Part shown: positions 36,012-63,480 of the stretch, piece after piece
Numbering within the stretch: the stretch's first letter is position 1
How the letters are laid out: every line of letters starts with the position of its first letter
DNA from: an uncultured Candidatus Saccharibacteria bacterium
GTDB lineage: Bacteria > Patescibacteriota > Minisyncoccia > Phycocordibacterales > UBA5272
Direction of reading: 5' to 3'
Assembly (NCBI GenBank): GCA_964369115.1
Contig: CAYJED010000004.1
Coordinates: forward strand, 16,428-80,427
DNA: 64,000 nucleotides
Made by a program: the position numbers and the translations under genes
The notes under the pieces: model-generated
The model's input: the letters and a program-made list of their open reading frames with translations, nothing else
What the model was told of the DNA's origin: nothing
Databases searched by the model: none

Positions 36012-36042
36012 TTCATCATAAAAATGATAAAATATAACTATA

Positions 36043-37830: not shown

Positions 37831-38061
37831 TATCTATATTTTACAATCTTTTCATAGAAAAACCATCAAAAAGATTTTCTAATTTATATACCGTATCTGG
37901 TATAGAACTATGCATTAGTGAGTAAAATCAAGCAAAAACCTAACCTTGACATTATTGTTTACCAATGCTATAATATAACAACTGAACTAACCCTAAATGA
38001 AAGAGGGAAAGTTAGTCGGTGTATGTTACGAAAACATACATGCTCATTACAGGAGAAAGAC

Positions 38062-39325: not shown

Positions 39326-39377
39326 CAAAAACAATAACTCATTATCGTGGTAAAATACATATAAGTTATAGAACTTT

Positions 39378-40067: not shown

Positions 40068-40375
40068 ATAAGACCTTGTAGGTATGGTGTGAATTATCAT
40101 ACTGAACAGCTTACTTTGTAACGGTTTCTGAATTCCTATAAGGTCGTAATGGGTATGTAATAGGCCCATACATATTTCCTACAATGTTTTTATGACGCTC
40201 GAAGAGTTCATAAAAACAATAGGCAAAGAAGCGGATGGACTATCTCAAGAAGAGATTGAGTTTTACTATACCGTAACAGTAAAAACCTTCGATATATTTT
40301 TTGATAGATACAAGAAAGAAAAAATGTTGGTAGCACACGGATAATTCATCATAAAAATGATAAAATATAACTATA

Positions 40376-42091
40376 ATGGACCAACCAATTTATGTCATAG
40401 GGTATGCTAGAGTGAGTACCCCAAAACAAGCTCAAACTGGTGAGAGTTTGGAGGCACAAGAAAAAGCAATAAGAAAATATTGTGAAAAGAAAGGATATGC
40501 CCTCTTTCCTGATAACAAAGTTTTCAAAGAGCCATATTCTGGGAGTAATCTTTTCAGGCCAGCATACAGAGAAATACTAGGAATTATAAAGAACAATATA
40601 CATTCAAAAACAAAGGTAAAATATTTAGTATTTTGGGACTTTGATCGTCTCACGAGAGGAGGTTCGGCTGATTATGATCAGATATGGAAAGATGTTTCTG
40701 AATATGGCGTTGAATTGAGAGATACAACAGAAATAATTCAAGAGGAAGTAAATATTATAAAGGAAGAGTTTGGTCTTGATATTGAATATGGTTGGAGCAC
40801 AGCCAGACCAAGTGAAGAAGCTGAAAAAACAAAAGCAGAAGACGCAAGGAAACATAAGCGAAAAATATTGCAGACAATGATAACGGCGGAGATCCGTCTA
40901 ACGATAGATGGCTATCACATAGGAAGACCTGATTATGGTTTTCAAAACAAAAAGATTTTTGTGGGCACAAAGAAAAAATGTATCCAGGAAAGATTTGAAC
41001 CCGAAGCGGTATTTGTTGAAAGAATATACAAACTTCGTGCTGAAGGGGTGCTTTCTGATCAAGAAATTTGTAACGATGTGAATACTTTAGGATATAAAAG
41101 TAGAACTTTCAATAAATGGAACAAAGACAAGACAAAAGTGTTGAGTGTTTCCGGGGGCAATAAACTGACCATAAAGCAGTTACAAGATATGATCAAGCGT
41201 TTTACTTACTGTGGTGTTATCTGTGAACGGTGGACCAAATATCAGCCGATAAAAGCAAAGTATGAAGGTCTTGTGACTGTTGATCAGTGGAATACAGCAA
41301 ACAGAGGTAAGGTTCAATTGGAAATAGGAGACGACGATTATTTCACTTTGCTAAAAGATGTAAATATTCATAGTAAGAAGCGTAAAAAATATAACCCTAA
41401 CTTTCCTTTCAAAGGTGTTTTGATGTGTGAAGTATGTGGTAAGGTGATGAAGGCAAGCGCTTCAACTGGTAAAAGTGGGAAACCTTTTCCGGCTTATCAT
41501 TGTGGTAGAGGTCACAAAAATAACGGTATCCCTAAAAAAGAACTTGAAGATGCTTTCAATAATTACTTGGAAAAGATAAAATTCACTGATAAGTTCTTGA
41601 ATATTTTTGAAAAGACAGTTTATCTACAATTCAGAAAGAGAGAAGGAGAGCTTGCTGATTATACAAGCAAGGCAAATATCAATGTTGGAGAATTAGAAGC
41701 GCAGAAATCTGCACTTATAAAGTCATTCCCAGCAGCAACTCACCCAGAGGTTAGAAAAGGAATAGAAGATGAGATAACTAAACTGCAAGACGAGATTGCT
41801 AAAGCAAGATCACAAAGAGATAAAATGGAGATCGAAGAAGCTGACGTTGAGAATTTTATTGCTTGGTGTAAGGAAACAATGGAACACCCAACAAAAATCC
41901 TTACAGATATTAGGTCCGAGCAAGAATTAGCGAACACTTTTTTACTTTTCTTTGAGAAGTTTCCTACCTATACAGAATTAGTTAGTGGAACACCTAAACT
42001 ATCTTTAGTTTTCAAGCTTTCAGAAGAATTCAAGGTCAATCAAGACCTGTTGGTGACCCTACGGAGAGTCGAACTCCGCTTCCAGGCATGA
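40376..42091 (+). CDS. large serine recombinase (integrated-form C-terminus, reads into tRNA-Glu antisense)
   Basis: Identical to 36043..37830 for 560 aa, then diverges at the GGTGA core into ...TLRRVELRFQA encoded by the complement of the tRNA-Glu 3' half. Confidence 0.8.
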   Translation: MDQPIYVIGYARVSTPKQAQTGESLEAQEKAIRKYCEKKGYALFPDNKVFKEPYSGSNLFRPAYREILGIIKNNIHSKTKVKYLVFWDFDRLTRGGSADYDQIWKDVSEYGVELRDTTEIIQEEVNIIKEEFGLDIEYGWSTARPSEEAEKTKAEDARKHKRKILQTMITAEIRLTIDGYHIGRPDYGFQNKKIFVGTKKKCIQERFEPEAVFVERIYKLRAEGVLSDQEICNDVNTLGYKSRTFNKWNKDKTKVLSVSGGNKLTIKQLQDMIKRFTYCGVICERWTKYQPIKAKYEGLVTVDQWNTANRGKVQLEIGDDDYFTLLKDVNIHSKKRKKYNPNFPFKGVLMCEVCGKVMKASASTGKSGKPFPAYHCGRGHKNNGIPKKELEDAFNNYLEKIKFTDKFLNIFEKTVYLQFRKREGELADYTSKANINVGELEAQKSALIKSFPAATHPEVRKGIEDEITKLQDEIAKARSQRDKMEIEEADVENFIAWCKETMEHPTKILTDIRSEQELANTFLLFFEKFPTYTELVSGTPKLSLVFKLSEEFKVNQDLLVTLRRVELRFQA

Positions 42092-42125
42092 GAAGCCTGT
42101 GTCCTAGCCGATAGACGATAGGGCC
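42051..42125 (-). tRNA. tRNA-Glu (anticodon CUC), CCA encoded
   Basis: The reverse complement folds as a cloverleaf: acceptor GGCCCTA/TAGGGTC, anticodon stem CAGGC/GCCTG with loop UUCUCAU, T-arm CGGAG-TTCGACT-CTCCG, 3' ACCA. Confidence 0.7.
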
Positions 42126-46964: not shown

Positions 46965-48305
46965 ATGTTAGTAGAAGAGTTTAATAAGATCCTCTTCTCT
47001 AAAAACCCTATGGCAAAAGAAAAGATCATATGGTCTGCAGTTGCTCGCAAACTGCAAGACCTGATCAAAAACGGATACAATCCGCGCAAGTTAAGCGAGA
47101 ACGAACGAAGAGACTTGGAAAGGTCAATAAAGGAATTCGGAACAGTTGTTCCAGTGATCCTCAATACTGGCTCCCGAACCAATATTATTATTGGTGGCGA
47201 ACAACGAGTCAAAGTATATGCCGATCTCGGCATAGCAGAGATTGAGTGCATGATACCCTCCCGAGAGCTAACGCTTGAGGAAGAGCGAGAACTCAATCTT
47301 CGTCTCAACAAGAACACGGGTTCGTGGAATGAAGAACTTCTCAAAGAGTTTGATATGAGCCTGCTTCTTGATATCGGTTTTGGAGATGAAGAATTACAAA
47401 ACCTATTTGATGATGTTGACCTTGTCGAGGATGACTTTAACCTTGAAAAAGCACTCAAGGAAACAATTAAGCCGAAAGTAAAATCAGGAGAAATTTGGGA
47501 GCTTGGGAAACATCGCCTACTTGTCGGCGATTCTACGGATCAGGAACTCGTGCAGAAGCTCATGAACGGAGACTTGGCGGACATTGTGTACTGCGACCCG
47601 CCATACAACATCGGCTTGGACTATTCCAAAGGAGTTGGAAACAAGGAAAAATACCAGGGTTCGTATTCAGGCAAGGACGACTCCAAGAAAGACAGCGACT
47701 ACATGGATTTCTTGGACAAGAGCATGGAAGTGGCAAAAAGTATCAGCAAGAAAAATGCCCACTTCTTCTATTGGTGCGATTCCTCATATCTTTGGATGGT
47801 TCAAACCTTGTATGCAAAACACAAGGTAGATTCCAAGCGTGTCTGCATGTGGATCAAGAACAACCAGAACCCTACTCACAAGATTGCCTTTAATAAAGTG
47901 TACGAGCCGTGTGTATACGGAACGCTCGGCAAGCCATATCTCAATACAGGAATGAATAACACCAACGAGATCCTTAACCAAGAAGTAACCACTGGCAATC
48001 AAGTACACGATGAAATCCTAGACATGATAGATATCTGGATTGAGAAAAGGGACAACGCTCAGTCGTACCAGCACCCTACGCAAAAACCCGTCACCTTAAA
48101 CGAGAAACCATTTAAGCGTTGCAGTTCTCCACTGCATATCATCTACAGCGGATTTGCAGGAAGCGGTAGTGACCTAATTGCCGCCGAAGAACTACATCGC
48201 GTATGGCGTGGCGTTGAGAAAGATCTCATCTTCGCAACCATTGTCATTGACCGATGGGAGAAATTTACCAACCTTAAGGCAAAGAAAATCTATGAAAATA
48301 AATAA
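46965..48305 (+). CDS. ParB-like nuclease domain fused to DNA methyltransferase (DPPY, N6-adenine/N4-cytosine class)
   Basis: N-terminal ParB-like region (...GYNPRKLSENERRDLERSIKEFG..), then the DPPY motif IV (IVYCDPPYN) and, C-terminal to it, an FAGSGS AdoMet-binding motif with HPTQKP. Confidence 0.75.
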   Translation: MLVEEFNKILFSKNPMAKEKIIWSAVARKLQDLIKNGYNPRKLSENERRDLERSIKEFGTVVPVILNTGSRTNIIIGGEQRVKVYADLGIAEIECMIPSRELTLEEERELNLRLNKNTGSWNEELLKEFDMSLLLDIGFGDEELQNLFDDVDLVEDDFNLEKALKETIKPKVKSGEIWELGKHRLLVGDSTDQELVQKLMNGDLADIVYCDPPYNIGLDYSKGVGNKEKYQGSYSGKDDSKKDSDYMDFLDKSMEVAKSISKKNAHFFYWCDSSYLWMVQTLYAKHKVDSKRVCMWIKNNQNPTHKIAFNKVYEPCVYGTLGKPYLNTGMNNTNEILNQEVTTGNQVHDEILDMIDIWIEKRDNAQSYQHPTQKPVTLNEKPFKRCSSPLHIIYSGFAGSGSDLIAAEELHRVWRGVEKDLIFATIVIDRWEKFTNLKAKKIYENK

Positions 48306-49041
48306 AAGAGACACATTCAAAGTTGGCGATCACATCATTGCTTGCGGTGATTCGCTGGACAAGGCATTTGTCGGCAAGGTCATAGGAAGCAATAAGATAC
48401 GAGCGGTCGTCACTGATCCTCCATACGGCGTTGCGTATGTTGAGAATAAGAAAGGCTTTCTGAAACTTAGCTCTGATGAAGATAAAGCTATAACCAACGA
48501 TCATATCCAAACCGAAGAAGAGTATGGGGAGTTTACCCGCAAATACTTGGGAGCGGTTATTCCATATCTTGAAGAATACAATGCGGTCTACATTTTCAAT
48601 GCCGATCCGATGTTCCCGAGCCTACGCTCTGGCATGAAGTCCGCTGGTTTCTACTACAGCCAAATGATAATTTGGCTCAAGAACCAGCCCGTCATGAGCC
48701 GAAAGGATTACTTGTCGATGTATGAACTCATTGCATACGGTTGGTTCGGTAAGCATCGAATGGAACGGTCTAAAGCGAGAAATGTTATCTACCACCCCCG
48801 ACCGACCAAATCCAGACTTCACCCGACACAAAAACCGATCGGACTGCTCAGAAAAATCATCCCTAACTCAACAAAGGTCGGTGACATTGTTTACGATCCA
48901 TTCCTTGGAAGTGGCTCAACCGCTATTGCCTGTGAACACTTAGGTCGAAAGTGTGTCGGTATCGAGCTTGATGAAGCATATGTAGAAACTACGCTCAAAA
49001 GACTCGAAAAGCTCACTGGCGAAACAGCGATAAAGCTCTAA
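48292..49041 (+). CDS. DNA methyltransferase (DPPY class), second subunit or paralog
   Basis: VVTDPPYG, HPTQKP and DPFLGSGST motifs. Overlaps the upstream methyltransferase by 14 nt. Confidence 0.75.
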   Translation: MKINKRDTFKVGDHIIACGDSLDKAFVGKVIGSNKIRAVVTDPPYGVAYVENKKGFLKLSSDEDKAITNDHIQTEEEYGEFTRKYLGAVIPYLEEYNAVYIFNADPMFPSLRSGMKSAGFYYSQMIIWLKNQPVMSRKDYLSMYELIAYGWFGKHRMERSKARNVIYHPRPTKSRLHPTQKPIGLLRKIIPNSTKVGDIVYDPFLGSGSTAIACEHLGRKCVGIELDEAYVETTLKRLEKLTGETAIKL

Positions 49042-51109: not shown

Positions 51110-51219
51110 ATTTTTTATTTTCCTTTACCACCTTTCTGAACAGGCTGACCTTGGCTTGGTGTTGGTCGTGGCGCTGGCTGGGGTTTTGGCGCTGGTTTAG
51201 AGTTATTATTTGCCATATA

Positions 51220-51669
51220 TTAGATAAAAATCATTAGCAATATACCGACTAGGAATAATGTAAGTGCTTGTTTGTAATCCTTGTTCTTGCCTTCCAAAGC
51301 TTTTGAATTATCATCAAACGCTTTTTGATAATCTGAGAGTAATTGATCTAAAAGGGTTTCAGTTTTCATTGAACGATAATCTTTTGGATCATTATAAAAA
51401 TCCACTACGCCCGTATTATATGTTTTAACTTTCAATGTTTGCCAAAGGAAATATCCAGAAAAGAGCAGAATCATTATCGGTATTACTTGAAGAGCATGGA
51501 TATGATGAAAACTTTGTATGTAGAAAATGAGAATAGCTCCCTCTAGTGGAATCATTACTCCTGCTTTTGCATCAAGTCCGTTATCGGCATTGAGTAAATA
51601 ATCAACCTTGCTTCTTGTTGCATTTACAAGTATTTCTAGTGATTTGGTTTTGTCTTCATGCTCGGTCAT
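51220..51669 (-). CDS. small membrane protein co-transcribed downstream of Type III res
   Basis: 149 aa with two central TM helices and one C-terminal TM helix. Its start overlaps the res stop by 4 nt. Confidence 0.4.
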   Translation of the reverse strand: MTEHEDKTKSLEILVNATRSKVDYLLNADNGLDAKAGVMIPLEGAILIFYIQSFHHIHALQVIPIMILLFSGYFLWQTLKVKTYNTGVVDFYNDPKDYRSMKTETLLDQLLSDYQKAFDDNSKALEGKNKDYKQALTLFLVGILLMIFI

Positions 51670-53960
51670 ATAACATCCTTTAAATTATCCCAACCGTTCA
51701 AGCTCGGAGAGTAAGTATATTTCTTTCCTGAATTGAGTTTCCAACCATTCGGGCCGTCTTGAACAGCAATACCACCAGCTATATTCTTTTTACCTTTGAG
51801 CCATTCTTGCAGCGCCTCGGCTTTGTATTTAGTATCGGCAATTTCAGCAGTAGATCCTTTCTTGGTGTCTACGATCCAAACCTTGTCTTTTGTCTTAAAA
51901 ATCCAATCAGGATAAAAGAGTTTTTCTTTATTCTCGTCAGGGTTGTAGTAAGCAAGCGAGAAATATTCGCTTCCTGAATCACCGTTTTTGTACCACCATT
52001 CAATAGCTTTGTGCTCTTCTAGGAATTTAATGAATTCCTTTTCGTTATCTTCGCCTTTGTAATCTCTCTCGATATAAAACGGAGCCATAGCCGATTTCTT
52101 CACACTCATTTCTTCGTACTGGTCGGTATAGAAAAGACTCTCACGAGGAATCTCAATTTGCTCCGTTCGTTTTGCGCGCTCAGATTTGCGATTTACTTCT
52201 TGTTCACGGATTGGACGATAGACTGCAAGAGCATCACCGATCACAGGAGCGAGAACGCTTGCTTGGTTCAACAGGTCGTTAACGATAATGTTGTAAATAA
52301 CATGGCGTGTTTCTCCTGTATTGTTCAATAACCAAACATTAAGAGCGGTCTTGAGCTTTCCCCATGAACGCTCTGGTGCAAATTTCTTGTTTTCGTCAGT
52401 CTGCTTTGCAATAAGGTTAAAGCAGAATAAGTTGTATAGGCGTTCAAGATCATACTGGGACATTTCTTGATCGTGGCTTCCACCTTCTGCCAGTAGCTCT
52501 TTTGTGAAATTATCATAATCGTCAATTTCCACATTAACGATTAGTCCATTCGTAACTGTTACAGATATATCTAAACCTTTGTCTTTCAGTCGCTTGAGTA
52601 CCTTAGTTTCTTTTTCATTGATTCCAAAATACTTATCTGCTACTTTTTGAAATACGTCTTGGAAAGAATCACCAAGGTCGTTATAGTCGGTACGACTCAT
52701 GAATACGGAATCAACCATAATAGGCTTAACAGATTGCTTGCGGTAACTTCCGTAAATGGCAGGTCGGTTTTGTTCTGTAGATTTAGAGTAACCCGTGATG
52801 ACTTCGTTTCTTTTGTAGTTGGTATAAAGATAACCTAGATTTAATTCTGGCTTTGGAAAATGAAAACCTAGAGGCATACGAAGAATACGGCCAACAGTCT
52901 GAATAGCAAAAGTTGGGTTTTTAATCTCACGGAACATCACAAGCACACTTGCGCGAGGACAATCCCAGCCTGTCGCGGCGGCTTGTTTAAAAAGAAGAAA
53001 TGATACTGGCGAATTGTTTCTCTCGATGTCTTCAAGGTTGATCTTATCTTCGGAAAGCCACACCGCAATCTCATGCTCAAAAACACCTTTTGATTTAAGA
53101 AAGTCAGTTATCAAAGCTTGTTTTGTTACTCCACCTGACTCCTTACTTGCTTTGTCGTCATTTGGAAGCTGTACCAATACGAGAGGGTTCACTTCAACAC
53201 CAATTTCTTTGTAATACGCCACAAGCTCGGCTCGTTTGTTATATGCGAGAGTCAAAAGAATATCGTCCTGATCCATTCCCGCAAATTCTTTTTTAGCCAA
53301 ATCTTCTTCTGTCTGAAAAATAATCTTTTCTTTGATAAGCCCCTCACGCACAACATCGGCACGATTAACGTCTACAGTCACGCCTACTGTTTGCGGGGTA
53401 GCAGAAACACCGATAATAATTCGGGGCTTAATAACATTCTGGATAAGGTCGCTTGCAAGCACCGTGGACGAGGCGATATGTTCCTCGTCGATGATAAGTA
53501 CCACTTCGCGACCTTGCGAGTGTGTAGCTTCAAGATATTCGTCAAAAGTAGTATTCAATTCTCCCTCAGTGCGGAGCTTACGGTTTGTTTGCGCGCGAGA
53601 CACCAACTTCTGCCAGTTTATGAAAAAGACACCGCTTCGAGGGATGCAACCGTCACGGAGATCATTCAAATCAAGGAGCGTATTTTCGCTTGCACCGCCG
53701 TAATATGAAAAAAGTTTGTCTTTGGATTGCATCGCAAGCGAGTCTGAGTTTGTGATCCACAGAAATCCAACGTCAGCATTCTGGAAGCGTGGATCAGAAA
53801 CAATATCGCGGAGAAACTGCGCCATCATAATTGTCTTACCCGATCCAGTTGGAGATTTAAAAGTCAGGTTTAAATTACGATCGCCAAGTTTCCAAAGCGT
53901 CAGGAATTTCTCCTTGAGTTGTGAGATTGCAGTTTCTTGGAATGGTTTAAGTGCGAACAT
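51666..53960 (-). CDS. res: Type III restriction enzyme, Res subunit (SF2 helicase-nuclease)
   Basis: KPFQETAI, Walker A SPTGSGKT, the DEEH box, SAT motif, and helicase motif VI-like QTVGRILR. Confidence 0.8.
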   Translation of the reverse strand: MFALKPFQETAISQLKEKFLTLWKLGDRNLNLTFKSPTGSGKTIMMAQFLRDIVSDPRFQNADVGFLWITNSDSLAMQSKDKLFSYYGGASENTLLDLNDLRDGCIPRSGVFFINWQKLVSRAQTNRKLRTEGELNTTFDEYLEATHSQGREVVLIIDEEHIASSTVLASDLIQNVIKPRIIIGVSATPQTVGVTVDVNRADVVREGLIKEKIIFQTEEDLAKKEFAGMDQDDILLTLAYNKRAELVAYYKEIGVEVNPLVLVQLPNDDKASKESGGVTKQALITDFLKSKGVFEHEIAVWLSEDKINLEDIERNNSPVSFLLFKQAAATGWDCPRASVLVMFREIKNPTFAIQTVGRILRMPLGFHFPKPELNLGYLYTNYKRNEVITGYSKSTEQNRPAIYGSYRKQSVKPIMVDSVFMSRTDYNDLGDSFQDVFQKVADKYFGINEKETKVLKRLKDKGLDISVTVTNGLIVNVEIDDYDNFTKELLAEGGSHDQEMSQYDLERLYNLFCFNLIAKQTDENKKFAPERSWGKLKTALNVWLLNNTGETRHVIYNIIVNDLLNQASVLAPVIGDALAVYRPIREQEVNRKSERAKRTEQIEIPRESLFYTDQYEEMSVKKSAMAPFYIERDYKGEDNEKEFIKFLEEHKAIEWWYKNGDSGSEYFSLAYYNPDENKEKLFYPDWIFKTKDKVWIVDTKKGSTAEIADTKYKAEALQEWLKGKKNIAGGIAVQDGPNGWKLNSGKKYTYSPSLNGWDNLKDVI

Positions 53961-53963
53961 AGA

Positions 53964-55700
53964 TTAAATGCGGTTAATTTCTTTATAAACTTCAAGGATC
54001 GGTTCGGGAATATCTTCGACACGGATAGTCCTCGTAGAATAATCATTCTTATACTCATTCTTACCCCAACCAAAAACATACAGCGTTGTTGGCTGATTTT
54101 TCTTCTCAAGAATCTTTATAATTTCTTTAAGTTTTGTTTTATCTTCCGTGAAATAGATAGCGGTTAACTTTCCGTTACCTTCAAAAATTTGCCACCACTC
54201 ATTTTTATCGACTTCATTTGAGGTGTTTTCTCGGAGTGCGATCATCTCTCCAGCCTGATAAGTAATTTTAATTTTTGCCTCATCAGAAATACGATGTAAC
54301 TTATCTACGTTTACCATATCGGTTTTAAAGTAAGATAAATTCCCACTAAGACCCTCGACTTTCACTCCTTTTCTGTTTTTATATCCTTTAATAACGCGTT
54401 TCAATCGCTCATATGTAACTTCTTCACAGATCTTATTTTCATTATTCGTACAAAGAATAAACTTACGATTACCACCATCTTGTTTATTGAGTTCAAGAAC
54501 GGCATGACCTGTAGTACCAGAGCCAGCGAAAAAATCGAGAATAACAGCATCTCTTTTGTCACTCATAACTCTTAAACTATCCATTACTGCGTAGAGAGAT
54601 TTTGGATAAGAAAATATTTGAAGTTCTGCGAAAATATCTTTTAATAGATTTGTTCCGTAAGCAGTCGAAGAATATTCTTTCTTATCCCACCAAGTCATAG
54701 GCAAAATTCCATCTTCGTTCATTCGTCCCTTTACATAAATCTGAAGTTTGCTTTTTTGTATACGAGATTGAAATTCATCCTGTTCATTCATGAATCTTTC
54801 AATACCCCAACGCCAACGTCTTTGCTTGCCGTCATCATCAATTGGATAGATTATTTCCTCTCCCTTTTTAGGCTTTTCTAATAATTGGTAATCTTCTAAA
54901 TTGTCGTCCCATGTTAATTTAGGCAACCTAATTGAATCTTTGGTTGCAAAGATCGGGTAGTACATTTTTGGAGACTCTTCTCGCATACTTCCGGGCTTGC
55001 GGAAGTTAACCCATTCAAAAGCACCATTCGCGTCTTTTTCATCATATCGGTCAATTTGAGACTGGTTTCTATCAAGTCTGGACACAAAAGCGGATTCTGT
55101 TTTTCCAAAAAAGACGGCATATTCGTGGGTAATAGATATTCCTTTTGTTGTAGATCTGCCCGCTGGATTGTTTCTGATAGGCACAGTTCCTAAATGATTG
55201 AATTCTCCAAAAATTTCTTCCATCAAGAGAATCAGTCTTGAAATTTCATAATCATCAATCGTGACGCAAATTATGCCATTTTCTTTGAGCAAGTTTTTAG
55301 CCAAACGCAACCTCTTTTCCATAAAAGAGATCCACTTGCTATGGCGAAAATTGTCGTTCTTATCTACATAGTCATTGTTGTATCGCCAGTCTGTTGCGCC
55401 GGTATTGTATGGCGGATCCGCGTAAATAACATCGACTGCGCCGCGATGCGTATAGTTCAAAACAGAAAGCGAGTGGTAATTATCTCCCTCGATTAGAATG
55501 TTCGTCGGGAGTGAATTATCAGAAACTAACTTTCTACTTTTAACTTCTTTAAGAAGAGGAATATTCGTCTCGCATTGCAAAACGACATCCTCTGGTTTAT
55601 CTTCCCAGACGAGTCCGTATTTTTTGCGATTCTTTAATTTTTTTATTTCAGATTGTAAATCTGAAATTTGAGCGCGTAGCTCTTTTTCTGTTTGAGACAT
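53964..55700 (-). CDS. mod: Type III restriction-modification system Mod methyltransferase
   Basis: IYADPPYNTG (motif IV) and FFAGSGTTGHA (motif I). 578 aa, immediately upstream of res. Confidence 0.85.
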   Translation of the reverse strand: MSQTEKELRAQISDLQSEIKKLKNRKKYGLVWEDKPEDVVLQCETNIPLLKEVKSRKLVSDNSLPTNILIEGDNYHSLSVLNYTHRGAVDVIYADPPYNTGATDWRYNNDYVDKNDNFRHSKWISFMEKRLRLAKNLLKENGIICVTIDDYEISRLILLMEEIFGEFNHLGTVPIRNNPAGRSTTKGISITHEYAVFFGKTESAFVSRLDRNQSQIDRYDEKDANGAFEWVNFRKPGSMREESPKMYYPIFATKDSIRLPKLTWDDNLEDYQLLEKPKKGEEIIYPIDDDGKQRRWRWGIERFMNEQDEFQSRIQKSKLQIYVKGRMNEDGILPMTWWDKKEYSSTAYGTNLLKDIFAELQIFSYPKSLYAVMDSLRVMSDKRDAVILDFFAGSGTTGHAVLELNKQDGGNRKFILCTNNENKICEEVTYERLKRVIKGYKNRKGVKVEGLSGNLSYFKTDMVNVDKLHRISDEAKIKITYQAGEMIALRENTSNEVDKNEWWQIFEGNGKLTAIYFTEDKTKLKEIIKILEKKNQPTTLYVFGWGKNEYKNDYSTRTIRVEDIPEPILEVYKEINRI

Positions 55701-56004
55701 AGGGGTACAGTTCTATGTCTCGGCTATCCATATTTGGTTTGTATAGAAACGGCAAAGAGGGACAGCCGAGCCTGTACCCCATAATGGTGCTACCCCGAAA
55801 GGTTCCTGTTATGGAACTCGGACTGCCCCTCTTTGCCTATAACAGGTAAGAGAAAACAGTCCTTTCGGGGACGAAGCACTAAATATATAAACACTATGGG
55901 GTACAAATGAACTCTAACATAAAAACACCTCTAAATAAAGGCTTATTTAGAGGTGTTTACCAACAGTCTGGACTTTGCGAGTGCTTCGCGTCATTTAATA
56001 GTAT

Positions 56005-56328
56005 GTGGACGATATTGAGGCCGTTATCAAGGCCAGCCAGCATTTCAAATATGAGGAATCCGAGGTAAGTTATGCTTTCAACAAAGCCTCTGACTTACCG
56101 GAATCTAAGTCGAATCTGAAGCGAGCCATAAAGGAGCGCATTCAGCTTTTGTGCGCTTCATATATTTCACTGGCTTCTTTCTTGCCTGATGAGGATGCGG
56201 AATATTTGCTCGGCCTTCATGGAGAGCAGAAGAAAAAGCGATCAATTAAAATCATGATGCGAATGATGAAAGAAATGGATAAGCTCGAAAAAGAGATCCG
56301 TAATTTTGATCCGTTTTCACCTCTATAA
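56005..56328 (+). CDS. hypothetical protein (GTG start; duplicate at 59374..59697)
   Basis: 107-aa ORF downstream of a 15-bp-stem hairpin. No clear RBS. Confidence 0.25.
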   Translation: MDDIEAVIKASQHFKYEESEVSYAFNKASDLPESKSNLKRAIKERIQLLCASYISLASFLPDEDAEYLLGLHGEQKKKRSIKIMMRMMKEMDKLEKEIRNFDPFSPL

Positions 56329-56419
56329 AAAATTGAGCGGACTCGCTTCGCGAGTAAATGCCAAAGGGTCAAAGAACCCAAGAGTCAAAGAATCAGAAAA
56401 ATACAAAGAGACAACAGGT

Positions 56420-58261
56420 CTAAGATTCAGACTTGCGGAGACGGAACACGAACTCAACGTCCGGAATCCACGCGCTGTCGGGCGACGCCCAACTGCGGCG
56501 CAGCCACAAACCGCCAACGTCGCGTTCGAGGCGGAAGACGTACGGGCTGCCGCCGGAGTCAGCGATTTGCTTCATACCAATACGTACCCATTCATTGAGA
56601 GGTTGATCTTTGTATTTAAGACGATAGTTAGGACCAGTATCAGGAGGACACAACTCCAAGCCAAGCGTTTGTGCGCGTTCGTAAATTTGGTCAGTGGTAG
56701 CGCTTGTCTTGAATCCGAGGTCAGCGACAGTAAGACGGATGAGTGTTGCTTCTTCGCGAGTCTTTCCGGGAATGAAGTCGCGATTTTTCATCATAGACTT
56801 TGCGTAATCAGAAATATTTATGTGAGCCGCTTCCATTTCAGCAATTAACTGTTCAGTAGTCTTGCCTCCGATCTCTACGCTTTCTCTGCGGATTTTCTTT
56901 TCAGGGAATGAAGTGTAGACATGTTCAAGACCTTCCGGCAATTTTTGGAATATGCCTGGTTCAAGCTGTCCGACATAGGCTTTGGTGTCTTTTGTGATCT
57001 GACTTGGCACGTGAGCAATATCTTCTTTTGTACACTCAAAAATAACAAGCATGTCTTCCTCGGTGTTTCGCCCTTTGCGTAGTTCAGCGATACGAGGGTC
57101 TGTCTGATAACCGAACCCTTCAATTGATGAATTGATTTCGTAGAGGAATACTAAATCGTCTTTGGTAAAGGGTTCATCCTGTTCACGCTTCTGGTCGAGA
57201 GCGGTCAGTATTTTCATATCTCCGCTTTTCTTGCGGTACGCATCAGCCTCACCACCAAAGTCTTGGAGTTTTGCATCAAGTGCTTCCTGCATAATTGGCT
57301 CTACGCCCTGATGCGGAAGAATACCTCTCACTTCGCCGATTCTATTGTCGCCCTCCATGCGGATCGCAAGACGAGGTTGGGTTGGTTCGCCGTTTGAATC
57401 ATTCGTGTAATAAACATAAAAGTCGCCATTCTCTATTTGTGTTTCTGCTGTCGATTTACCGGCAGTACACCAACCAGTTCCTTTTCCTTCAAGTGACTCA
57501 AATAATTGTTCGGCATCGCCGCTCTGTCCTTGTTGATATTTTTTCCATTCACCTTTAACTTCCTCGCGGTTCTCCATTGAAGCGGCGAGAGATTTTGAAA
57601 TGAGTTCGGCGTATAAGCTCGGAAACTTTTGAGAAAAGGCTTCGCGGATTTCAGGCTCTTTGAGATTCTTATTGTCTTCTTTTACCTTGAGATAAATATC
57701 AGCAATCTGTGCCAACGGCTCGCGGTAGATATCGGGGTATGGTGCAACAGTACTATCGGTACGCTTTTTGAACTCGCCACGCTCCTTGTCGAACTGTGAA
57801 AGTTTAGTGATATTTTTCCAAACGAAGTACTTGAACCACGCTGGGTACATAGCATCGTCTGAAGTAAGGTACTCCATCCACGCATCAAGCGATGCCCGCT
57901 GATCTTCAATAGCAACATCCATCATTTGTTCACGGACATTGTCAGGAATTTCCTCTACTGCTTGTCCGCGCTCGCGGGCGATGCGTTTCTGTAATTCAAA
58001 ATATGATTCAGGAAAATTCTCCTTCTTTATGATGAACGCATCATATATTTTATCGCGAAACATTTCGAGATTGCGTTCGCGTTTCTTTTCGTCAGGGTTA
58101 AGAAAAACATTCTCCAAGCGATCCATGTATGCCTCGATACGCTCGGCAGGATCGTTCGGCATTTTTTCGCCAGTGTGTCGCTCCTCTCGCACAACTGCCC
58201 GATTTACCTCGGGAGAGGTTTGGAGTTCTGGGCTTTTAAGATGGAGCGGATGTTTTTCCAT
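56420..58261 (-). CDS. DGR target protein with C-terminal CLec-like variable region (copy 1)
   Basis: 613 aa. The C-terminus SGGSPYVFRLERDVGGLWLRRSWASPDSAWIPDVEFVFRLRK corresponds codon-for-codon to the Asn-rich TR. There is no signal peptide. Confidence 0.8.
   Translation of the reverse strand: MEKHPLHLKSPELQTSPEVNRAVVREERHTGEKMPNDPAERIEAYMDRLENVFLNPDEKKRERNLEMFRDKIYDAFIIKKENFPESYFELQKRIARERGQAVEEIPDNVREQMMDVAIEDQRASLDAWMEYLTSDDAMYPAWFKYFVWKNITKLSQFDKERGEFKKRTDSTVAPYPDIYREPLAQIADIYLKVKEDNKNLKEPEIREAFSQKFPSLYAELISKSLAASMENREEVKGEWKKYQQGQSGDAEQLFESLEGKGTGWCTAGKSTAETQIENGDFYVYYTNDSNGEPTQPRLAIRMEGDNRIGEVRGILPHQGVEPIMQEALDAKLQDFGGEADAYRKKSGDMKILTALDQKREQDEPFTKDDLVFLYEINSSIEGFGYQTDPRIAELRKGRNTEEDMLVIFECTKEDIAHVPSQITKDTKAYVGQLEPGIFQKLPEGLEHVYTSFPEKKIRRESVEIGGKTTEQLIAEMEAAHINISDYAKSMMKNRDFIPGKTREEATLIRLTVADLGFKTSATTDQIYERAQTLGLELCPPDTGPNYRLKYKDQPLNEWVRIGMKQIADSGGSPYVFRLERDVGGLWLRRSWASPDSAWIPDVEFVFRLRKSES
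56432..56564 (-). repeat. DGR variable repeat VR (copy 1)
   Basis: The reverse complement matches TR 58554..58686 at 110/133 positions; all 23 mismatches are opposite TR adenines. Confidence 0.85.
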
Positions 58262-58553
58262 ATATGGTTCGCATTATAGCATAAATTACTGCGAAATAAA
58301 GAGGTTTTTGGTATACTATTTTCAGATTGGTTTCATTGAACGGCTACGGTTTTTCAAGACCAATTTACTTCATGTAGATTGAGAGCGCGAACGGTTACGG
58401 CTTTTCGCGGAGGATGTGCATTGAGGTCTTTAAAAAGAAAAAACTTGGTGCGACGCGCTGGTTGATTTTCGATCACGCATAACGATACAGCACGGCTTCT
58501 GGCATATCATGTGCGCTTAAGTCGGCGGTGAGATGGATGGCGTGCCGCACAAA

Positions 58554-58686
58554 CGCTGACTCCGACGGCAACCCGAACGTCTTCAACCTCGAACGCAACG
58601 ATGACGGTTTGTGGCTGAACAACAATTGGGCGAAACCCGACAACACGTGGAATCCGGACAATAAGTTCGTGTTCCGTCTCCGAAAC
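58554..58686 (+). repeat. DGR template repeat TR (copy 1)
   Basis: Non-coding AAC-rich repeat (translating as ...SDGNPNVFNLERNDDGLWLNNNWAKPDNTWNPDNKFVFRLRN), followed by a hairpin ccgcgac..gtcgcgg. Confidence 0.85.
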
Positions 58687-58710
58687 TATTTTCTTTTCCG
58701 CGACCTCATG

Positions 58711-59121
58711 TTACATGTCGCGGTTTTTCTTTTCAGGGTTGGCAAGATTTTTCTTCCAACCGCCAAACATCTTGCCAACTTCTTCGAGTTTCAATGCAAC
58801 GCTCTCACAGTGAGCGTTTGAAATAAGCTTGCCCTCCCATGCAACAGAAACAAGAAACTTTAGTGTGTCTAACACCAAAATACACTCATTAATTTTCTCC
58901 TCTTTCTTATCTTTTTCTATAAAATAGGCAATGTATGACAATTCAAGCAGATCGAGAAACTTGTTCTCAATTCGTGAGCCAATTGTATAGCGTGCCCCTT
59001 TAGCAATATGCGGAACAATATTAACCCAAATCAAATAGCCCTCTTTAATCCTGTTGAGAATCGAGGCGTTGTTGGTGTGCGAAAGTCGGGGGGGGGGGGG
59101 GAGATTAGTAGCTCGGTTCAT
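58711..59121 (-). CDS. avd: Avd-like four-helix-bundle accessory protein (copy 1)
   Basis: About 130 aa with HIAKGARYTIGSRIENKFLDLLELSYIA...LEEVGKMFGGWKK, resembling the Avd/23S-rRNA-IVS four-helix-bundle family. A poly-C run (14 nt) encodes PPPP near the N-terminus. Confidence 0.6.
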   Translation of the reverse strand: MNRATNLPPPPRLSHTNNASILNRIKEGYLIWVNIVPHIAKGARYTIGSRIENKFLDLLELSYIAYFIEKDKKEEKINECILVLDTLKFLVSVAWEGKLISNAHCESVALKLEEVGKMFGGWKKNLANPEKKNRDM

Positions 59122-59211
59122 ATCTACAATAATATCATTTCTGTCGAAAACTTACTCGTCGCATGGCGAGAATTCCTCCATGGAAAACGGACTGCCCCTC
59201 TTTGCCTATAA
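59008..59211 (+). pseudogene. truncated 5' fragment of the DGR reverse transcriptase (copy 1 of duplication)
   Basis: Identical to the first 60 codons of the 62377.. ORF (...ENLLVAWREFLHGKR), then interrupted by the duplication junction. Confidence 0.6.
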
Positions 59212-59373
59212 CAGGTAAGAGAAAACAGTCCTTTCGGGGACGAAGCACTAAATATATAAACACTATGGGGTACAAATGAACTCTAACATAAAAACACCTC
59301 TAAATAAAGGCTTATTTAGAGGTGTTTACCAACAGTCTGGACTTTGCGAGTGCTTCGCGTCATTTAATAGTAT

Positions 59374-59697
59374 GTGGACGATATTGAGGCCGTTATCAAG
59401 GCCAGCCAGCATTTCAAATATGAGGAATCCGAGGTAAGTTATGCTTTCAACAAAGCCTCTGACTTACCGGAATCTAAGTCGAATCTGAAGCGAGCCATAA
59501 AGGAGCGCATTCAGCTTTTGTGCGCTTCATATATTTCACTGGCTTCTTTCTTGCCTGATGAGGATGCGGAATATTTGCTCGGCCTTCATGGAGAGCAGAA
59601 GAAAAAGCGATCAATTAAAATCATGATGCGAATGATGAAAGAAATGGATAAGCTCGAAAAAGAGATCCGTAATTTTGATCCGTTTTCACCTCTATAA
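59374..59697 (+). CDS. hypothetical protein (duplicate of 56005..56328)
   Basis: Exact duplicate. Confidence 0.25.
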   Translation: MDDIEAVIKASQHFKYEESEVSYAFNKASDLPESKSNLKRAIKERIQLLCASYISLASFLPDEDAEYLLGLHGEQKKKRSIKIMMRMMKEMDKLEKEIRNFDPFSPL

Positions 59698-59788
59698 AAA
59701 ATTGAGCGGACTCGCTTCGCGAGTAAATGCCAAAGGGTCAAAGAACCCAAGAGTCAAAGAATCAGAAAAATACAAAGAGACAACAGGT

Positions 59789-61630
59789 CTAAGATTCAGA
59801 CTTGCGGAGACGGAACACGAACTCAACGTCCGGAATCCACGCGCTGTCGGGCGACGCCCAACTGCGGCGCAGCCACAAACCGCCAACGTCGCGTTCGAGG
59901 CGGAAGACGTACGGGCTGCCGCCGGAGTCAGCGATTTGCTTCATACCAATACGTACCCATTCATTGAGAGGTTGATCTTTGTATTTAAGACGATAGTTAG
60001 GACCAGTATCAGGAGGACACAACTCCAAGCCAAGCGTTTGTGCGCGTTCGTAAATTTGGTCAGTGGTAGCGCTTGTCTTGAATCCGAGGTCAGCGACAGT
60101 AAGACGGATGAGTGTTGCTTCTTCGCGAGTCTTTCCGGGAATGAAGTCGCGATTTTTCATCATAGACTTTGCGTAATCAGAAATATTTATGTGAGCCGCT
60201 TCCATTTCAGCAATTAACTGTTCAGTAGTCTTGCCTCCGATCTCTACGCTTTCTCTGCGGATTTTCTTTTCAGGGAATGAAGTGTAGACATGTTCAAGAC
60301 CTTCCGGCAATTTTTGGAATATGCCTGGTTCAAGCTGTCCGACATAGGCTTTGGTGTCTTTTGTGATCTGACTTGGCACGTGAGCAATATCTTCTTTTGT
60401 ACACTCAAAAATAACAAGCATGTCTTCCTCGGTGTTTCGCCCTTTGCGTAGTTCAGCGATACGAGGGTCTGTCTGATAACCGAACCCTTCAATTGATGAA
60501 TTGATTTCGTAGAGGAATACTAAATCGTCTTTGGTAAAGGGTTCATCCTGTTCACGCTTCTGGTCGAGAGCGGTCAGTATTTTCATATCTCCGCTTTTCT
60601 TGCGGTACGCATCAGCCTCACCACCAAAGTCTTGGAGTTTTGCATCAAGTGCTTCCTGCATAATTGGCTCTACGCCCTGATGCGGAAGAATACCTCTCAC
60701 TTCGCCGATTCTATTGTCGCCCTCCATGCGGATCGCAAGACGAGGTTGGGTTGGTTCGCCGTTTGAATCATTCGTGTAATAAACATAAAAGTCGCCATTC
60801 TCTATTTGTGTTTCTGCTGTCGATTTACCGGCAGTACACCAACCAGTTCCTTTTCCTTCAAGTGACTCAAATAATTGTTCGGCATCGCCGCTCTGTCCTT
60901 GTTGATATTTTTTCCATTCACCTTTAACTTCCTCGCGGTTCTCCATTGAAGCGGCGAGAGATTTTGAAATGAGTTCGGCGTATAAGCTCGGAAACTTTTG
61001 AGAAAAGGCTTCGCGGATTTCAGGCTCTTTGAGATTCTTATTGTCTTCTTTTACCTTGAGATAAATATCAGCAATCTGTGCCAACGGCTCGCGGTAGATA
61101 TCGGGGTATGGTGCAACAGTACTATCGGTACGCTTTTTGAACTCGCCACGCTCCTTGTCGAACTGTGAAAGTTTAGTGATATTTTTCCAAACGAAGTACT
61201 TGAACCACGCTGGGTACATAGCATCGTCTGAAGTAAGGTACTCCATCCACGCATCAAGCGATGCCCGCTGATCTTCAATAGCAACATCCATCATTTGTTC
61301 ACGGACATTGTCAGGAATTTCCTCTACTGCTTGTCCGCGCTCGCGGGCGATGCGTTTCTGTAATTCAAAATATGATTCAGGAAAATTCTCCTTCTTTATG
61401 ATGAACGCATCATATATTTTATCGCGAAACATTTCGAGATTGCGTTCGCGTTTCTTTTCGTCAGGGTTAAGAAAAACATTCTCCAAGCGATCCATGTATG
61501 CCTCGATACGCTCGGCAGGATCGTTCGGCATTTTTTCGCCAGTGTGTCGCTCCTCTCGCACAACTGCCCGATTTACCTCGGGAGAGGTTTGGAGTTCTGG
61601 GCTTTTAAGATGGAGCGGATGTTTTTCCAT
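59789..61630 (-). CDS. DGR target protein (copy 2, identical)
   Basis: Identical 613-aa product, VR included. Confidence 0.8.
   Translation of the reverse strand: MEKHPLHLKSPELQTSPEVNRAVVREERHTGEKMPNDPAERIEAYMDRLENVFLNPDEKKRERNLEMFRDKIYDAFIIKKENFPESYFELQKRIARERGQAVEEIPDNVREQMMDVAIEDQRASLDAWMEYLTSDDAMYPAWFKYFVWKNITKLSQFDKERGEFKKRTDSTVAPYPDIYREPLAQIADIYLKVKEDNKNLKEPEIREAFSQKFPSLYAELISKSLAASMENREEVKGEWKKYQQGQSGDAEQLFESLEGKGTGWCTAGKSTAETQIENGDFYVYYTNDSNGEPTQPRLAIRMEGDNRIGEVRGILPHQGVEPIMQEALDAKLQDFGGEADAYRKKSGDMKILTALDQKREQDEPFTKDDLVFLYEINSSIEGFGYQTDPRIAELRKGRNTEEDMLVIFECTKEDIAHVPSQITKDTKAYVGQLEPGIFQKLPEGLEHVYTSFPEKKIRRESVEIGGKTTEQLIAEMEAAHINISDYAKSMMKNRDFIPGKTREEATLIRLTVADLGFKTSATTDQIYERAQTLGLELCPPDTGPNYRLKYKDQPLNEWVRIGMKQIADSGGSPYVFRLERDVGGLWLRRSWASPDSAWIPDVEFVFRLRKSES
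59801..59933 (-). repeat. DGR variable repeat VR (copy 2, identical to copy 1)
   Basis: Offset of 3369 from VR copy 1. Confidence 0.85.
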
Positions 61631-61922
61631 ATATGGTTCGCATTATAGCATAAATTACTGCGAAATAAAGAGGTTTTTGGTATACTATTTTCAGATTGGT
61701 TTCATTGAACGGCTACGGTTTTTCAAGACCAATTTACTTCATGTAGATTGAGAGCGCGAACGGTTACGGCTTTTCGCGGAGGATGTGCATTGAGGTCTTT
61801 AAAAAGAAAAAACTTGGTGCGACGCGCTGGTTGATTTTCGATCACGCATAACGATACAGCACGGCTTCTGGCATATCATGTGCGCTTAAGTCGGCGGTGA
61901 GATGGATGGCGTGCCGCACAAA

Positions 61923-62055
61923 CGCTGACTCCGACGGCAACCCGAACGTCTTCAACCTCGAACGCAACGATGACGGTTTGTGGCTGAACAACAATTGGGC
62001 GAAACCCGACAACACGTGGAATCCGGACAATAAGTTCGTGTTCCGTCTCCGAAAC
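61923..62055 (+). repeat. DGR template repeat TR (copy 2)
   Basis: Offset of 3369 from TR copy 1. Confidence 0.85.
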
Positions 62056-62079
62056 TATTTTCTTTTCCGCGACCTCATG

Positions 62080-62490
62080 TTACATGTCGCGGTTTTTCTT
62101 TTCAGGGTTGGCAAGATTTTTCTTCCAACCGCCAAACATCTTGCCAACTTCTTCGAGTTTCAATGCAACGCTCTCACAGTGAGCGTTTGAAATAAGCTTG
62201 CCCTCCCATGCAACAGAAACAAGAAACTTTAGTGTGTCTAACACCAAAATACACTCATTAATTTTCTCCTCTTTCTTATCTTTTTCTATAAAATAGGCAA
62301 TGTATGACAATTCAAGCAGATCGAGAAACTTGTTCTCAATTCGTGAGCCAATTGTATAGCGTGCCCCTTTAGCAATATGCGGAACAATATTAACCCAAAT
62401 CAAATAGCCCTCTTTAATCCTGTTGAGAATCGAGGCGTTGTTGGTGTGCGAAAGTCGGGGGGGGGGGGGGAGATTAGTAGCTCGGTTCAT
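62080..62490 (-). CDS. avd: Avd-like accessory protein (copy 2)
   Basis: Identical to copy 1. The G14 tract lies at 62457..62470. Confidence 0.6.
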   Translation of the reverse strand: MNRATNLPPPPRLSHTNNASILNRIKEGYLIWVNIVPHIAKGARYTIGSRIENKFLDLLELSYIAYFIEKDKKEEKINECILVLDTLKFLVSVAWEGKLISNAHCESVALKLEEVGKMFGGWKKNLANPEKKNRDM

Positions 62491-63480
62491 ATCTACAATA
62501 ATATCATTTCTGTCGAAAACTTACTCGTCGCATGGCGAGAATTCCTCCATGGAAAACGGAGCCGTAAAGATGTAGCCCAATTTTCAGTGCATCTGACCGA
62601 TAATATACTTGCCCTTCATCGTGAACTCGTTGATAAGACCTACCATCACGGTCCATACAAAGCTTTTCGTATCAACGATCCTAAGCCGCGCGATATTCAT
62701 AAGGCGAGTGTTCGTGATCGGTTACTTCACCATGCTATTTATAGAATTTTGTATCCATATTTTGATCCTAAATTTATTTTTGATTCATACTCATGTCGTC
62801 GTGGCAAAGGCACGCACCGTGCGCTTGATAGATTCCGAGACTATGCGCGCAAAGTTTCTAAAAATCATATCCAAACGGTGTGGGTGTTAAAGTGCGATAT
62901 CAGAAAGTTTTTTGCAAACATTGATCACAGAATTTTGGAAGATATTTTGAAACTCAGGATGGGAGATGAAGATGTGATACGGCTTTTCAGAGAAATAGTC
63001 GGCAGTTTTAATACCAAAGACAAACACGGTGTCGGTCTCCCTCTTGGCAATTTGACGAGCCAGCTACTAGTAAACATTTATATGAATGAGTTTGATCACT
63101 TTCTCAAGCGAGATTTGAAAATTAAATACTGCGTCAGATATGCGGATGATTTTGTTATCCTGCATAAAGACAAAAAATATTTAGAAAGTGTCTTGCCAAA
63201 AATCTCTGCATTTTTAGAGACAAGGCTCAAGCTTTCTCTGCATCCCGATAAGGTATTTATAAAAACATTCGCTTCGTGCGTGGACTTTCTTGGTTGGGTG
63301 CATTTTCCGCATCATCGCGTACCGAGGACATCAACAAAAAAGAGAATGTTCAGAAATTTAAATCAAAACCCAAAAAAGGAATCACTAAGTTCCTATGCTG
63401 GACTTCTGAGTCACGGCGATACACATGAATTACGAGAGACGATATTTGAGCGGTATTCAGACAATAAGGAGAAAAACTGA
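62377..63480 (+). CDS. DGR-type reverse transcriptase (5' boundary uncertain; ORF overlaps avd on the opposite strand)
   Basis: RT motifs: RINDPKPRDIHKASVRDRLLHHAI (1-2), LKCDIRKFFANIDH (3), GLPLGNLTSQLLVNIYM (4, the DGR-type SQ variant), YADD (5), LHPDK (6), FLGW (7). Confidence 0.8.
   Translation: MRNNINPNQIALFNPVENRGVVGVRKSGGGGEISSSVHIYNNIISVENLLVAWREFLHGKRSRKDVAQFSVHLTDNILALHRELVDKTYHHGPYKAFRINDPKPRDIHKASVRDRLLHHAIYRILYPYFDPKFIFDSYSCRRGKGTHRALDRFRDYARKVSKNHIQTVWVLKCDIRKFFANIDHRILEDILKLRMGDEDVIRLFREIVGSFNTKDKHGVGLPLGNLTSQLLVNIYMNEFDHFLKRDLKIKYCVRYADDFVILHKDKKYLESVLPKISAFLETRLKLSLHPDKVFIKTFASCVDFLGWVHFPHHRVPRTSTKKRMFRNLNQNPKKESLSSYAGLLSHGDTHELRETIFERYSDNKEKN

Follow-up and report, generated by a model that had tools for sequence, protein, structure and literature searches.

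The 64,000-nucleotide (nt) stretch analyzed here (the window; positions 16,428 to 80,427 of contig CAYJED010000004.1, assembly GCA_964369115.1, from an uncultured Candidatus Saccharibacteria bacterium) carries a Type III restriction–modification (R-M) gene pair, mod and res, followed on the same strand by a gene for a small membrane protein remotely similar to the Pycsar effector PycTM and by an open reading frame (ORF) for a 33-residue micropeptide. The initial annotation of this DNA described these four ORFs, all of which are present as reported, as a mod-res operon to which a membrane gene and a possible peptide had been added. The sequence comparisons below suggest a different division, in which the last two genes form a cassette that is probably a phage-defence or toxin module of its own rather than part of the restriction enzyme. 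The genes are as follows:

53964..55700, minus strand: mod, Type III DNA methyltransferase of 578 amino acids (aa), identified with Pfam N6_N4_Mtase and PADLOC MTase_III
51666..53960, minus strand: res, Type III restriction subunit of 764 aa, identified with Pfam ResIII and PADLOC REase_III
51220..51669, minus strand: PycTM-like membrane protein gene, 149 aa, identified with PADLOC PycTM PDLC02364
51115..51216, minus strand: micropeptide gene, 33 aa, hydrophilic and Pro/Lys-rich, identified as an ORF and by conservation

The four genes are tightly packed. A gap of 3 nt separates the mod stop from the res start. The 3′ end of res reads GAT GTT ATA TGA CCG, placing the ATG of the membrane gene within ATATGA; the junction sequence thereby confirms the ATGA overlap with the res stop noted earlier, and an AAGGA lies 9 nt 5′ of this ATG. 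The membrane gene ends in TAA and is followed by TAT, a 3-nt spacer, and then by the ATG of the 33-codon ORF, whose product is exactly the peptide first reported, MANNNSKPAPKPQPAPRPTPSQGQPVQKGGKGK. No Shine-Dalgarno sequence precedes this ATG at the junction as read from the window. Five nt separate the peptide stop from the stop of a convergent gene for a 496-aa protein. A scan of the region finds no terminator-like site from the start of mod to the end of the peptide gene, and the sole such site lies upstream of mod (55958..55923, minus strand), which is consistent with a single transcript shared by mod-res and the membrane–peptide cassette. An internal cassette promoter was considered and rejected: one 9-of-12 match occurs at 51743..51714, but promoter-like sites in the region are fewer than in shuffled controls, so this match is no evidence of a promoter. 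Relatives with a membrane protein of just 42–74% identity show the same ATGA overlap and again a small ORF downstream, so the arrangement appears to be more than chance.

The membrane protein displays hydrophobic stretches at residues 36–52, 56–79, and 132–149, and its AlphaFold2 model (predicted local distance difference test score, pLDDT, 88; predicted template-modelling score, pTM, 0.73) contains helices at residues 3–53, 59–79, and 103–148. Together these uphold the transmembrane (TM) topology proposed initially, with two central helices and one at the C-terminus. In the predicted layout, an N-terminal cytoplasmic helix runs into TM1, which is followed by TM2, a loop, and a long helix that runs into the C-terminal TM3. 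The family alignment reveals conserved motifs before TM1 (ADNxLDxK), after TM2 (YNTG), and before TM3 (LLxQLLSDYQxAFDxN...KN), and its conserved polar residues cluster on the predicted cytoplasmic side, adjoining the membrane.

Direct scans of the 149-aa protein against Pfam, NCBIfam, and PHROGs return noise-level hits (Bax1-I, 0.018; phrog_21076, 0.012). The PADLOC PycTM model PDLC02364 matches at E=1.9e-5, aligning residues 30–148 with model positions 21–148 of 160, and 24 of the 25 aligned family members match PADLOC PycTM models (best E=1.6e-7). Among 1.84 billion representatives, a profile search yields 239 relatives of ~150 aa; in this wider family, PycTM models are matched by 41 of 60 sampled members, with a best E-value of 2e-10. 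When compared by hhalign with the cyclase-linked PycTM of a related locus, L085, the window family aligns over 115 columns with 89.9% probability (E=1.7e-6), and the wider family over 131 columns with 96.5% probability (E=8.8e-10). Precomputed matches to PF18967 are unmarked, and hence strong, for the relatives P0062-P0064, P0066, and P0068, and that to PF18967.6 is “faint” for the window protein itself. In the databases searched, the family is confined to bacteria of the Candidate Phyla Radiation (CPR), with relatives in metagenome-assembled genomes (MAGs) labelled Paceibacterota, Parcubacteria, Nomurabacteria, and Saccharibacteria. An identical 149-aa protein is on record from a Candidatus Pacebacteria MAG, and one relative lies on an IMG/VR viral contig. 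A tblastn search with the membrane protein against 50,697 phage genomes and 72,556 plasmid records finds no match.

No cyclase was detected beside the cassette among the neighbors that were scanned (mod, res, the peptide, and the 496-aa protein), the rest of the 64-kb window lying outside the cyclase-model scan, and no cyclase family is listed within ~8 kb among the called genes of any related locus that was looked up. Other small membrane effectors were also considered. SLATT-type membrane effectors were reportedly described by Burroughs et al. in 2015; like the 2TM effectors of the cyclic-oligonucleotide-based antiphage signaling system (CBASS), they are small multi-TM proteins thought to kill by membrane disruption. 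The SLATT kinship raised as a candidate in the initial annotation does not hold: the 149-aa protein has no SLATT match in Pfam even at E<=10, and no model from SLATT_1 to SLATT_6 is hit by any of the 25 family members at that threshold or by the 60 wider members at E<=0.01. One wider-family member matches a model for reverse-transcriptase-associated SLATT proteins. PADLOC “2TM Effector” (CBASS) models give weak matches in 6 of 25 family members (best E=4.4e-4), but neither Pfam nor PADLOC detects a nucleotidyltransferase in the window operon, which differs from these systems in having no CD-NTase (cGAS/DncV-like nucleotidyltransferase)/SMODS or reverse-transcriptase partner. The remote PycTM homology and these weaker CBASS 2TM matches support the earlier suggestion of a link to small TM abortive-infection effectors.

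The constant companion of the membrane gene is the small ORF. In every locus examined that carries the membrane gene, a small ORF starts −20 to +45 nt from its stop codon, and a motif search recovers the peptide in all cassette-positive loci and in 0 of ~70 cassette-negative loci; the peptides of L042 and L012 escaped the regular expression and were confirmed by eye. Full peptides from the window (MANNNSKPAPKPQPAPRPTPSQGQPVQKGGKGK), L007 (MANKNTLSIKNDQSKPSPTPKPATPTPRPAPSQGQTVSKGGKNK), L016 (MSNKNKSQNTPPQPKPTPPPQRPTPNTGQSVSKGNKRK), and L012 (MSNNKPIKSGQPQPKQPVPPSNPAPKVGNQGKPVSKGNKVK), the C-terminal ends from L110 (...PPPPPRKEPQPTDSVTKGI) and L116 (...PAPSDPEYITKGQ), and two parts from L113 (...LPRPNQGETITKG...PKPNPGETITRGG) illustrate its conservation. 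The N-terminus is N/K-rich and begins M-[AST]-N-[KN]-N, while the C-terminus follows the conserved motif RP-x-P-[SN]-x-G-Q-x-V-x-K-[GD]-x-K-x-K. A wider form of the latter, P-x-P..G-x-x-[VI]-[ST]-K-G, is kept even where the membrane protein is ~30% identical, and remote relatives retain a small ORF ending in ...[VI][ST]KG. Across 14 distinct DNA versions, the ratio of nonsynonymous to synonymous polymorphism (pN/pS) over the last 17 codons is 0.33 and all length changes are in-frame, which indicates purifying selection on the peptide. When searched as a profile against 5.8 billion proteins, the peptide retrieves exclusively stand-alone proteins of 31–63 aa, on contigs that agree in size with those of the membrane-protein matches.

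The alternative that the small ORF is a chance reading frame or non-coding spacer, with the membrane protein acting alone, would account for the missing Shine-Dalgarno sequence, the low complexity of the peptide, and its lack of a family match in Pfam, PADLOC, NCBIfam, or PHROGs. It is effectively refuted by the amino-acid motif, which persists in all cassette-positive loci despite third-position changes and with in-frame indels, by the many independent assemblies in which gene callers report the peptide, and by its absence wherever the membrane gene is absent. Of the doubts first voiced about this ORF, the lack of a clear ribosome-binding site (RBS) stands, but the suspicion that it may not be a real gene does not: conservation, pN/pS, in-frame indels, and co-occurrence all identify it as a real gene, and no other gene accompanies the membrane gene as constantly. 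The strict co-occurrence, narrow spacing, and joint presence or absence are those of a two-gene module, and the peptide is probably translated by reinitiation after the membrane gene. Two other roles were rejected. Stop-codon readthrough could fuse the two products in the window and in L016, where both lie in one frame, but other loci have spacers of 4 or 8 nt or overlapping genes. Nor does the peptide fit an arbitrium-like secreted signal or a spanin, since it lacks a signal sequence, lipobox, or hydrophobic stretch.

The R-M genes upstream constitute a conventional Type III system. Mod matches Pfam N6_N4_Mtase (PF01555, E=2.2e-30) and PADLOC MTase_III (E=3e-91), and its translation contains DPPY (within VIYADPPYNTG) and FFAGSGTT motifs. 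Res matches Pfam ResIII (PF04851, E=1.8e-16) and PADLOC REase_III (E=5.1e-19), with superfamily 2 (SF2) helicase motifs SPTGSGKT (Walker A), DEEH, SAT, and QTVGRILR, and a C-terminal PD..(D)xK nuclease motif (YPDWIF...IVDTKKG) in a region that weakly matches an NCBIfam restriction endonuclease family. A Mod methyltransferase directly upstream of res and a Res with helicase and C-terminal nuclease domains are the two hallmarks of Type III enzymes. The central target-recognition region of mod is variable: window positions 55200–54750 share 40–45% nt identity with L037 against 70–89% in the flanks, as expected for target-recognition domain swapping. EcoP15I and EcoP1I serve as reference Type III R-M systems. 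They share with the window the mod-then-res order, a β-class DPPY methyltransferase with a variable central target-recognition domain, and a Res that combines an SF2 helicase with a PD-(D/E)xK nuclease; the window Res is shorter (764 aa), and the pair is otherwise unremarkable.

The cassette does not follow this R-M core. We compared the 80 metagenomic loci with the most similar res (64–85% identity), of which 77 are informative in having at least 430 nt downstream of res. The membrane gene is present in seven of these (L037, L042, L044, L046, L047, L048, and L050) and missing from 70, including the loci with the four closest res (85, 83, 82, and 77% identical). This agrees with the earlier remark that membrane proteins are not standard partners of Type III enzymes, and it largely contradicts a res-plus-membrane-gene arrangement conserved among related genomes. 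Conversely, the cassette stands alone, without res, in four lineages (L016-18, L108, L113-115, and L116); in L016-18 it lies among toxin–antitoxin (TA)-like genes, and the neighbors of stand-alone copies include TA and mobile-element genes (HigB, SocA_Panacea, recombinases, and an S24 repressor). In L013-15 the cassette follows an open 505-aa res remnant that corresponds to Res residues 262–764 (73% identical), an AlwI-type R-M system having replaced mod and the first 261 res codons (L013:2099-8004); this system comprises a RadC-methyltransferase fusion, a second D12 methyltransferase, and RE_AlwI.

The histories of the two parts also differ. In the Res tree, cassette-positive loci fall at two separate places, and the window and L012 are nested in a cassette-negative clade. 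Relative to L037, the window shows 40–80% nt identity over mod and most of res, rising to 96–99% at ~52050 and staying there to the end of res and on across the cassette and the 496-aa gene. Relative to L012 the pattern is inverted, with ~85% nt identity across mod-res that drops to 51–57% across the cassette; the Res proteins are 94% identical and the membrane proteins just 42%. The Res tree and these nucleotide mosaics point to a history of the cassette that is separate from that of mod-res. Two further features mark this junction:

51900..52050: recombination breakpoint in the 3′ part of res, from sliding nucleotide identity against L037 and L012
49619..51109, plus strand: convergent gene for the 496-aa protein, without a family match

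Membrane protein and peptide are thus not conserved components of Type III R-M systems, with 70 of the 77 loci lacking them and the cassette occurring without res. On the same grounds, together with the differing history, treating mod, res, and the membrane gene as a single functional unit lacks support.

The position directly 3′ of homologous res genes is occupied by diverse defence genes in L053, L063, L070, L074, L080, L085, L088, and L091, often 2–5 nt from the res stop or overlapping it. L085 harbors a canonical Pycsar pair directly after res (PycC, E=1.2e-100; PycTM, E=1.5e-36). Other occupants include Gabija GajA (E=6.6e-209), a CBASS cyclase (E=2e-109) with a 2-TM neighbor, AriA/PtuA/Old-like ATPases, PDC-S06, a KAP NTPase, and a Ppl-like protein. 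This variety of defence systems characterizes the slot as a defence hotspot. The region itself is an integrative, prophage-like island of a Patescibacteria (CPR) bacterium: two large serine recombinase genes (36043..37830 and 40376..42091; 595 and 571 aa) adjoin a tRNA-Glu gene, and loci of cassette relatives carry genes for a serine recombinase, an S24 repressor, and Terminase_6C. The island also harbors two methyltransferase genes and a diversity-generating retroelement, both described below.

Our preferred explanation, to which we assign a probability of roughly 50%, is that the cassette is an autonomous module of membrane effector and micropeptide that occupies the defence-island slot directly 3′ of res. 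The membrane protein would have lost, or never had, a cyclase partner, and the micropeptide would be its constant partner instead. We infer the contact between peptide and protein, the direction of regulation, and the mechanism of killing as follows. The C-terminal motif of the peptide would bind the polar cytoplasmic face formed by ADNxLDxK, YNTG, and LLSDYQxAFDxN..KN, taking the regulatory role that cyclic CMP (cCMP) and cyclic UMP (cUMP) play in Pycsar. The peptide would most likely act as a stoichiometric, antitoxin-like inhibitor that keeps a pore-former closed, and reinitiation across a junction with no RBS and 3–8 nt spacing would couple its supply to that of the membrane protein. Infection would titrate or degrade the peptide, or halt its resupply, and the freed effector would then depolarize the membrane, leading to abortive infection or to the death of cells from which the island is lost. 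Transcription together with mod-res would make the defence layered, although the evidence speaks against obligatory coupling.

Several observations weigh against this explanation. The local PF18967.5 model does not match the window protein and gives 0.011–0.043 for two relatives, which do not reach its gathering score of 27.2 bits; this model is short (107 positions) and misses the membrane-protein family. Foldseek comparison of the membrane-protein model with PDB and BFVD returns nothing below E=0.19. With PADLOC and hhalign support but PF18967.5 below threshold, the protein is best regarded as a remote, divergent member of the PycTM superfamily that falls short of curated membership. The gene order, with the toxin first and its partner second and without an RBS of its own, is atypical for a labile antitoxin and fits a stoichiometric subunit or an activator equally well. 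The isoelectric point (pI) of the peptide ranges from 4.1 to 12 across the family, so that the chemistry of the partner is conserved only in part. Finally, within the sub-family of at least 42% identity, the cassette directly follows this res family in six of seven lineages, always with the ATGA overlap, and Res ends in ..KDVI (ATATGA), a terminus adapted to carry the start codon, in cassette-positive loci vs ..KDLL or ..KDLF in cassette-negative ones. This adjacency, overlap, and altered Res terminus make some functional coupling to Res possible.

Such coupling could take the form of a back-up integrated into the R-M system, in the manner of PrrC. The Type III enzyme would hold the effector, for example through the Res C-terminal domain, until a phage anti-restriction factor that disables Res/Mod frees it and the cell dies as restriction fails, with the peptide as adaptor or co-inhibitor. 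The retention of the ATGA overlap down to 42–43% membrane-protein identity and the systematic difference in the last two Res residues are as this scenario would predict, as are the last ~390 nt of res that travel with the cassette (window vs L037) and the res remnant that L013-15 keep open before it. It is nonetheless quite unlikely given the 70 of 77 close res loci that lack the cassette, the four stand-alone lineages, the disparity between Res and membrane-protein identity in L012, and the unrelated but complete defence systems in the same slot, which favor island packing over a dedicated partnership. The simplest reading of the res adjacency and ATGA overlap is inherited synteny and operon compaction.

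The model for this alternative is the prr locus, in which the PrrC anticodon nuclease is embedded in the Type Ic R-M system EcoprrI and is unleashed by the T4 Stp peptide. The window resembles prr in having a putative abortive-infection effector gene within a co-transcribed R-M operon, as a second line of defence behind restriction. It differs in that the effector is a membrane protein rather than a nuclease and that the cassette, which most related R-M loci do without, is also found where there is no R-M system. A combined version, in which a PycTM-type effector is gated by an encoded micropeptide instead of a cyclic nucleotide and has, in one CPR lineage, perhaps been welded to a Type III Res as a PrrC-like guard that fires when restriction is disabled, is likewise unlikely.

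The island setting bears on two further alternatives to an autonomous defence module. The membrane protein could serve a non-abortive prophage or island function, either superinfection exclusion by blocking DNA entry or, with the peptide as regulator, a holin-like role in lysis or its timing. Small membrane proteins at moron positions are often exclusion proteins, and such a role would suit the integrative-element location with large serine recombinases by tRNA-Glu, the relatives with serine recombinase, S24 repressor, and Terminase_6C genes, and the relative from the IMG/VR viral contig. We consider it quite improbable: no endolysin or lysin family is listed among the neighbors of any locus that was looked up, the cassette is convergent with, rather than within, packaging or late genes, and a Pfam holin match is weak and limited to 1 of 60 wider-family members. 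The homology points toward PycTM and 2TM effectors, and tblastn finds no homolog in the deposited phage genomes.

The cassette could also be a pure addiction (TA) module that stabilizes the mobile island and has no role in phage defence. A tightly coupled two-gene cassette on a mosaic mobile element, with stand-alone copies beside other TA genes, would be as expected, and the history of the cassette follows the downstream island backbone (in L037 the 496-aa protein is 97% identical and Res 73%). The same data, however, fit the autonomous defence module; many TA modules also act in defence, and the slot is otherwise held by bona fide defence systems, and a role limited to addiction seems quite unlikely.

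As an effector of Pycsar systems, PycTM was reportedly described by Tal et al. in 2021. It belongs to a type of Pycsar effector thought to breach the membrane. Upon binding of cCMP or cUMP, this receptor forms a membrane-spanning pore (PMC11224242). The window protein shares with it a size of ~150–170 aa, the three-helix layout, a remote sequence relationship along almost its whole length, and a location in defence islands. The window cassette differs in having no nearby PycC and, as its constant partner, a peptide of 26–54 aa rather than a cyclase; its membrane protein falls under the Pfam PF18967.5 threshold, and the family is CPR-confined in the databases searched.

In the two-gene RexAB system of phage lambda, a cytoplasmic partner controls a membrane effector. 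Type II PANGU likewise consists of a TM effector and a nucleoid-associated sensor (bioRxiv 10.64898/2026.04.06.716658). The window cassette resembles both as a two-gene system, often element-borne, of cytoplasmic partner and membrane effector, but shows no homology to either, and its partner is a disordered micropeptide without a DNA-binding fold. A basic, PANGU-type DNA-binding sensor was rejected as a role for the peptide, whose charge is not conserved (pI 4.1–12), which argues against nucleoid sensing.

Literature searches covering PycTM, DUF5706, Pycsar together with Type III restriction, and SLATT together with a small peptide yield no account of this arrangement, whether of a PycTM-like protein with a micropeptide partner or of one tied to Type III R-M. 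If the peptide controls a PycTM-like pore, effectors of nucleotide-signaling defence could be rewired to a protein or peptide ligand, and the cassette would represent a minimal two-gene killing module of ~560 nt in the highly reduced CPR genomes, whose phage defences are poorly known. The locus also carries a warning for annotation: a gene that overlaps an R-M enzyme by ATGA need not belong to that enzyme, and here the 3′ flank of a single res family is a hotspot for Pycsar, Gabija, CBASS, and other systems. Micro-ORFs of 26–54 codons beside effector genes are easily overlooked and may be common partners.

The convergent 496-aa gene next to the cassette is conserved along with it (97% identity in L037) and has no match in Pfam, PADLOC, NCBIfam, or PHROGs. 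A terminase assignment was considered and rejected, since the protein has no family match and is dissimilar to the Terminase_6C protein at the same position in L110. Farther along the window, on the opposite strand (46965..49041), lie two overlapping orphan methyltransferase genes that encode a ParB_N-methyltransferase fusion (446 aa) and an N6_N4 methyltransferase (287 aa). Mobile elements typically carry such genes for self-protection or anti-restriction.

Two perfect tandem duplications are present in the window. The first (33386..37723 / 37719..42056, period 4333 nt) contains a LOOT RNA (Rfam RF03000, 84.5 bits; 34296..34422 and 38629..38755), two small ORFs, and the serine recombinase, and ends at the tRNA-Glu (42051..42125). 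The second (55819..59191 / 59188..62560, period 3369 nt) has zero differences between its copies and spans the target gene, template repeat (TR), and bAvd of a diversity-generating retroelement (DGR). The related contig L012 has a single copy of the 3369-nt region, so this duplication may be an assembly artefact or very recent; finding two such exact repeats in a single window suggests a problem with the assembly.

The DGR adjoins the R-M operon (56420..63480) and comprises:

56420..58261, minus strand: target gene, 613 aa, with the variable repeat (VR) at 56429..56579
58538..58689, opposite orientation: TR, from TR/VR comparison
58711..59121, minus strand: bAvd (PF22296, E=1.2e-11)
62377..63480, plus strand: reverse transcriptase (RVT_1, E=2.1e-23)

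TR and VR differ by 30 mismatches in 151 positions, 25 of which fall at TR adenines.

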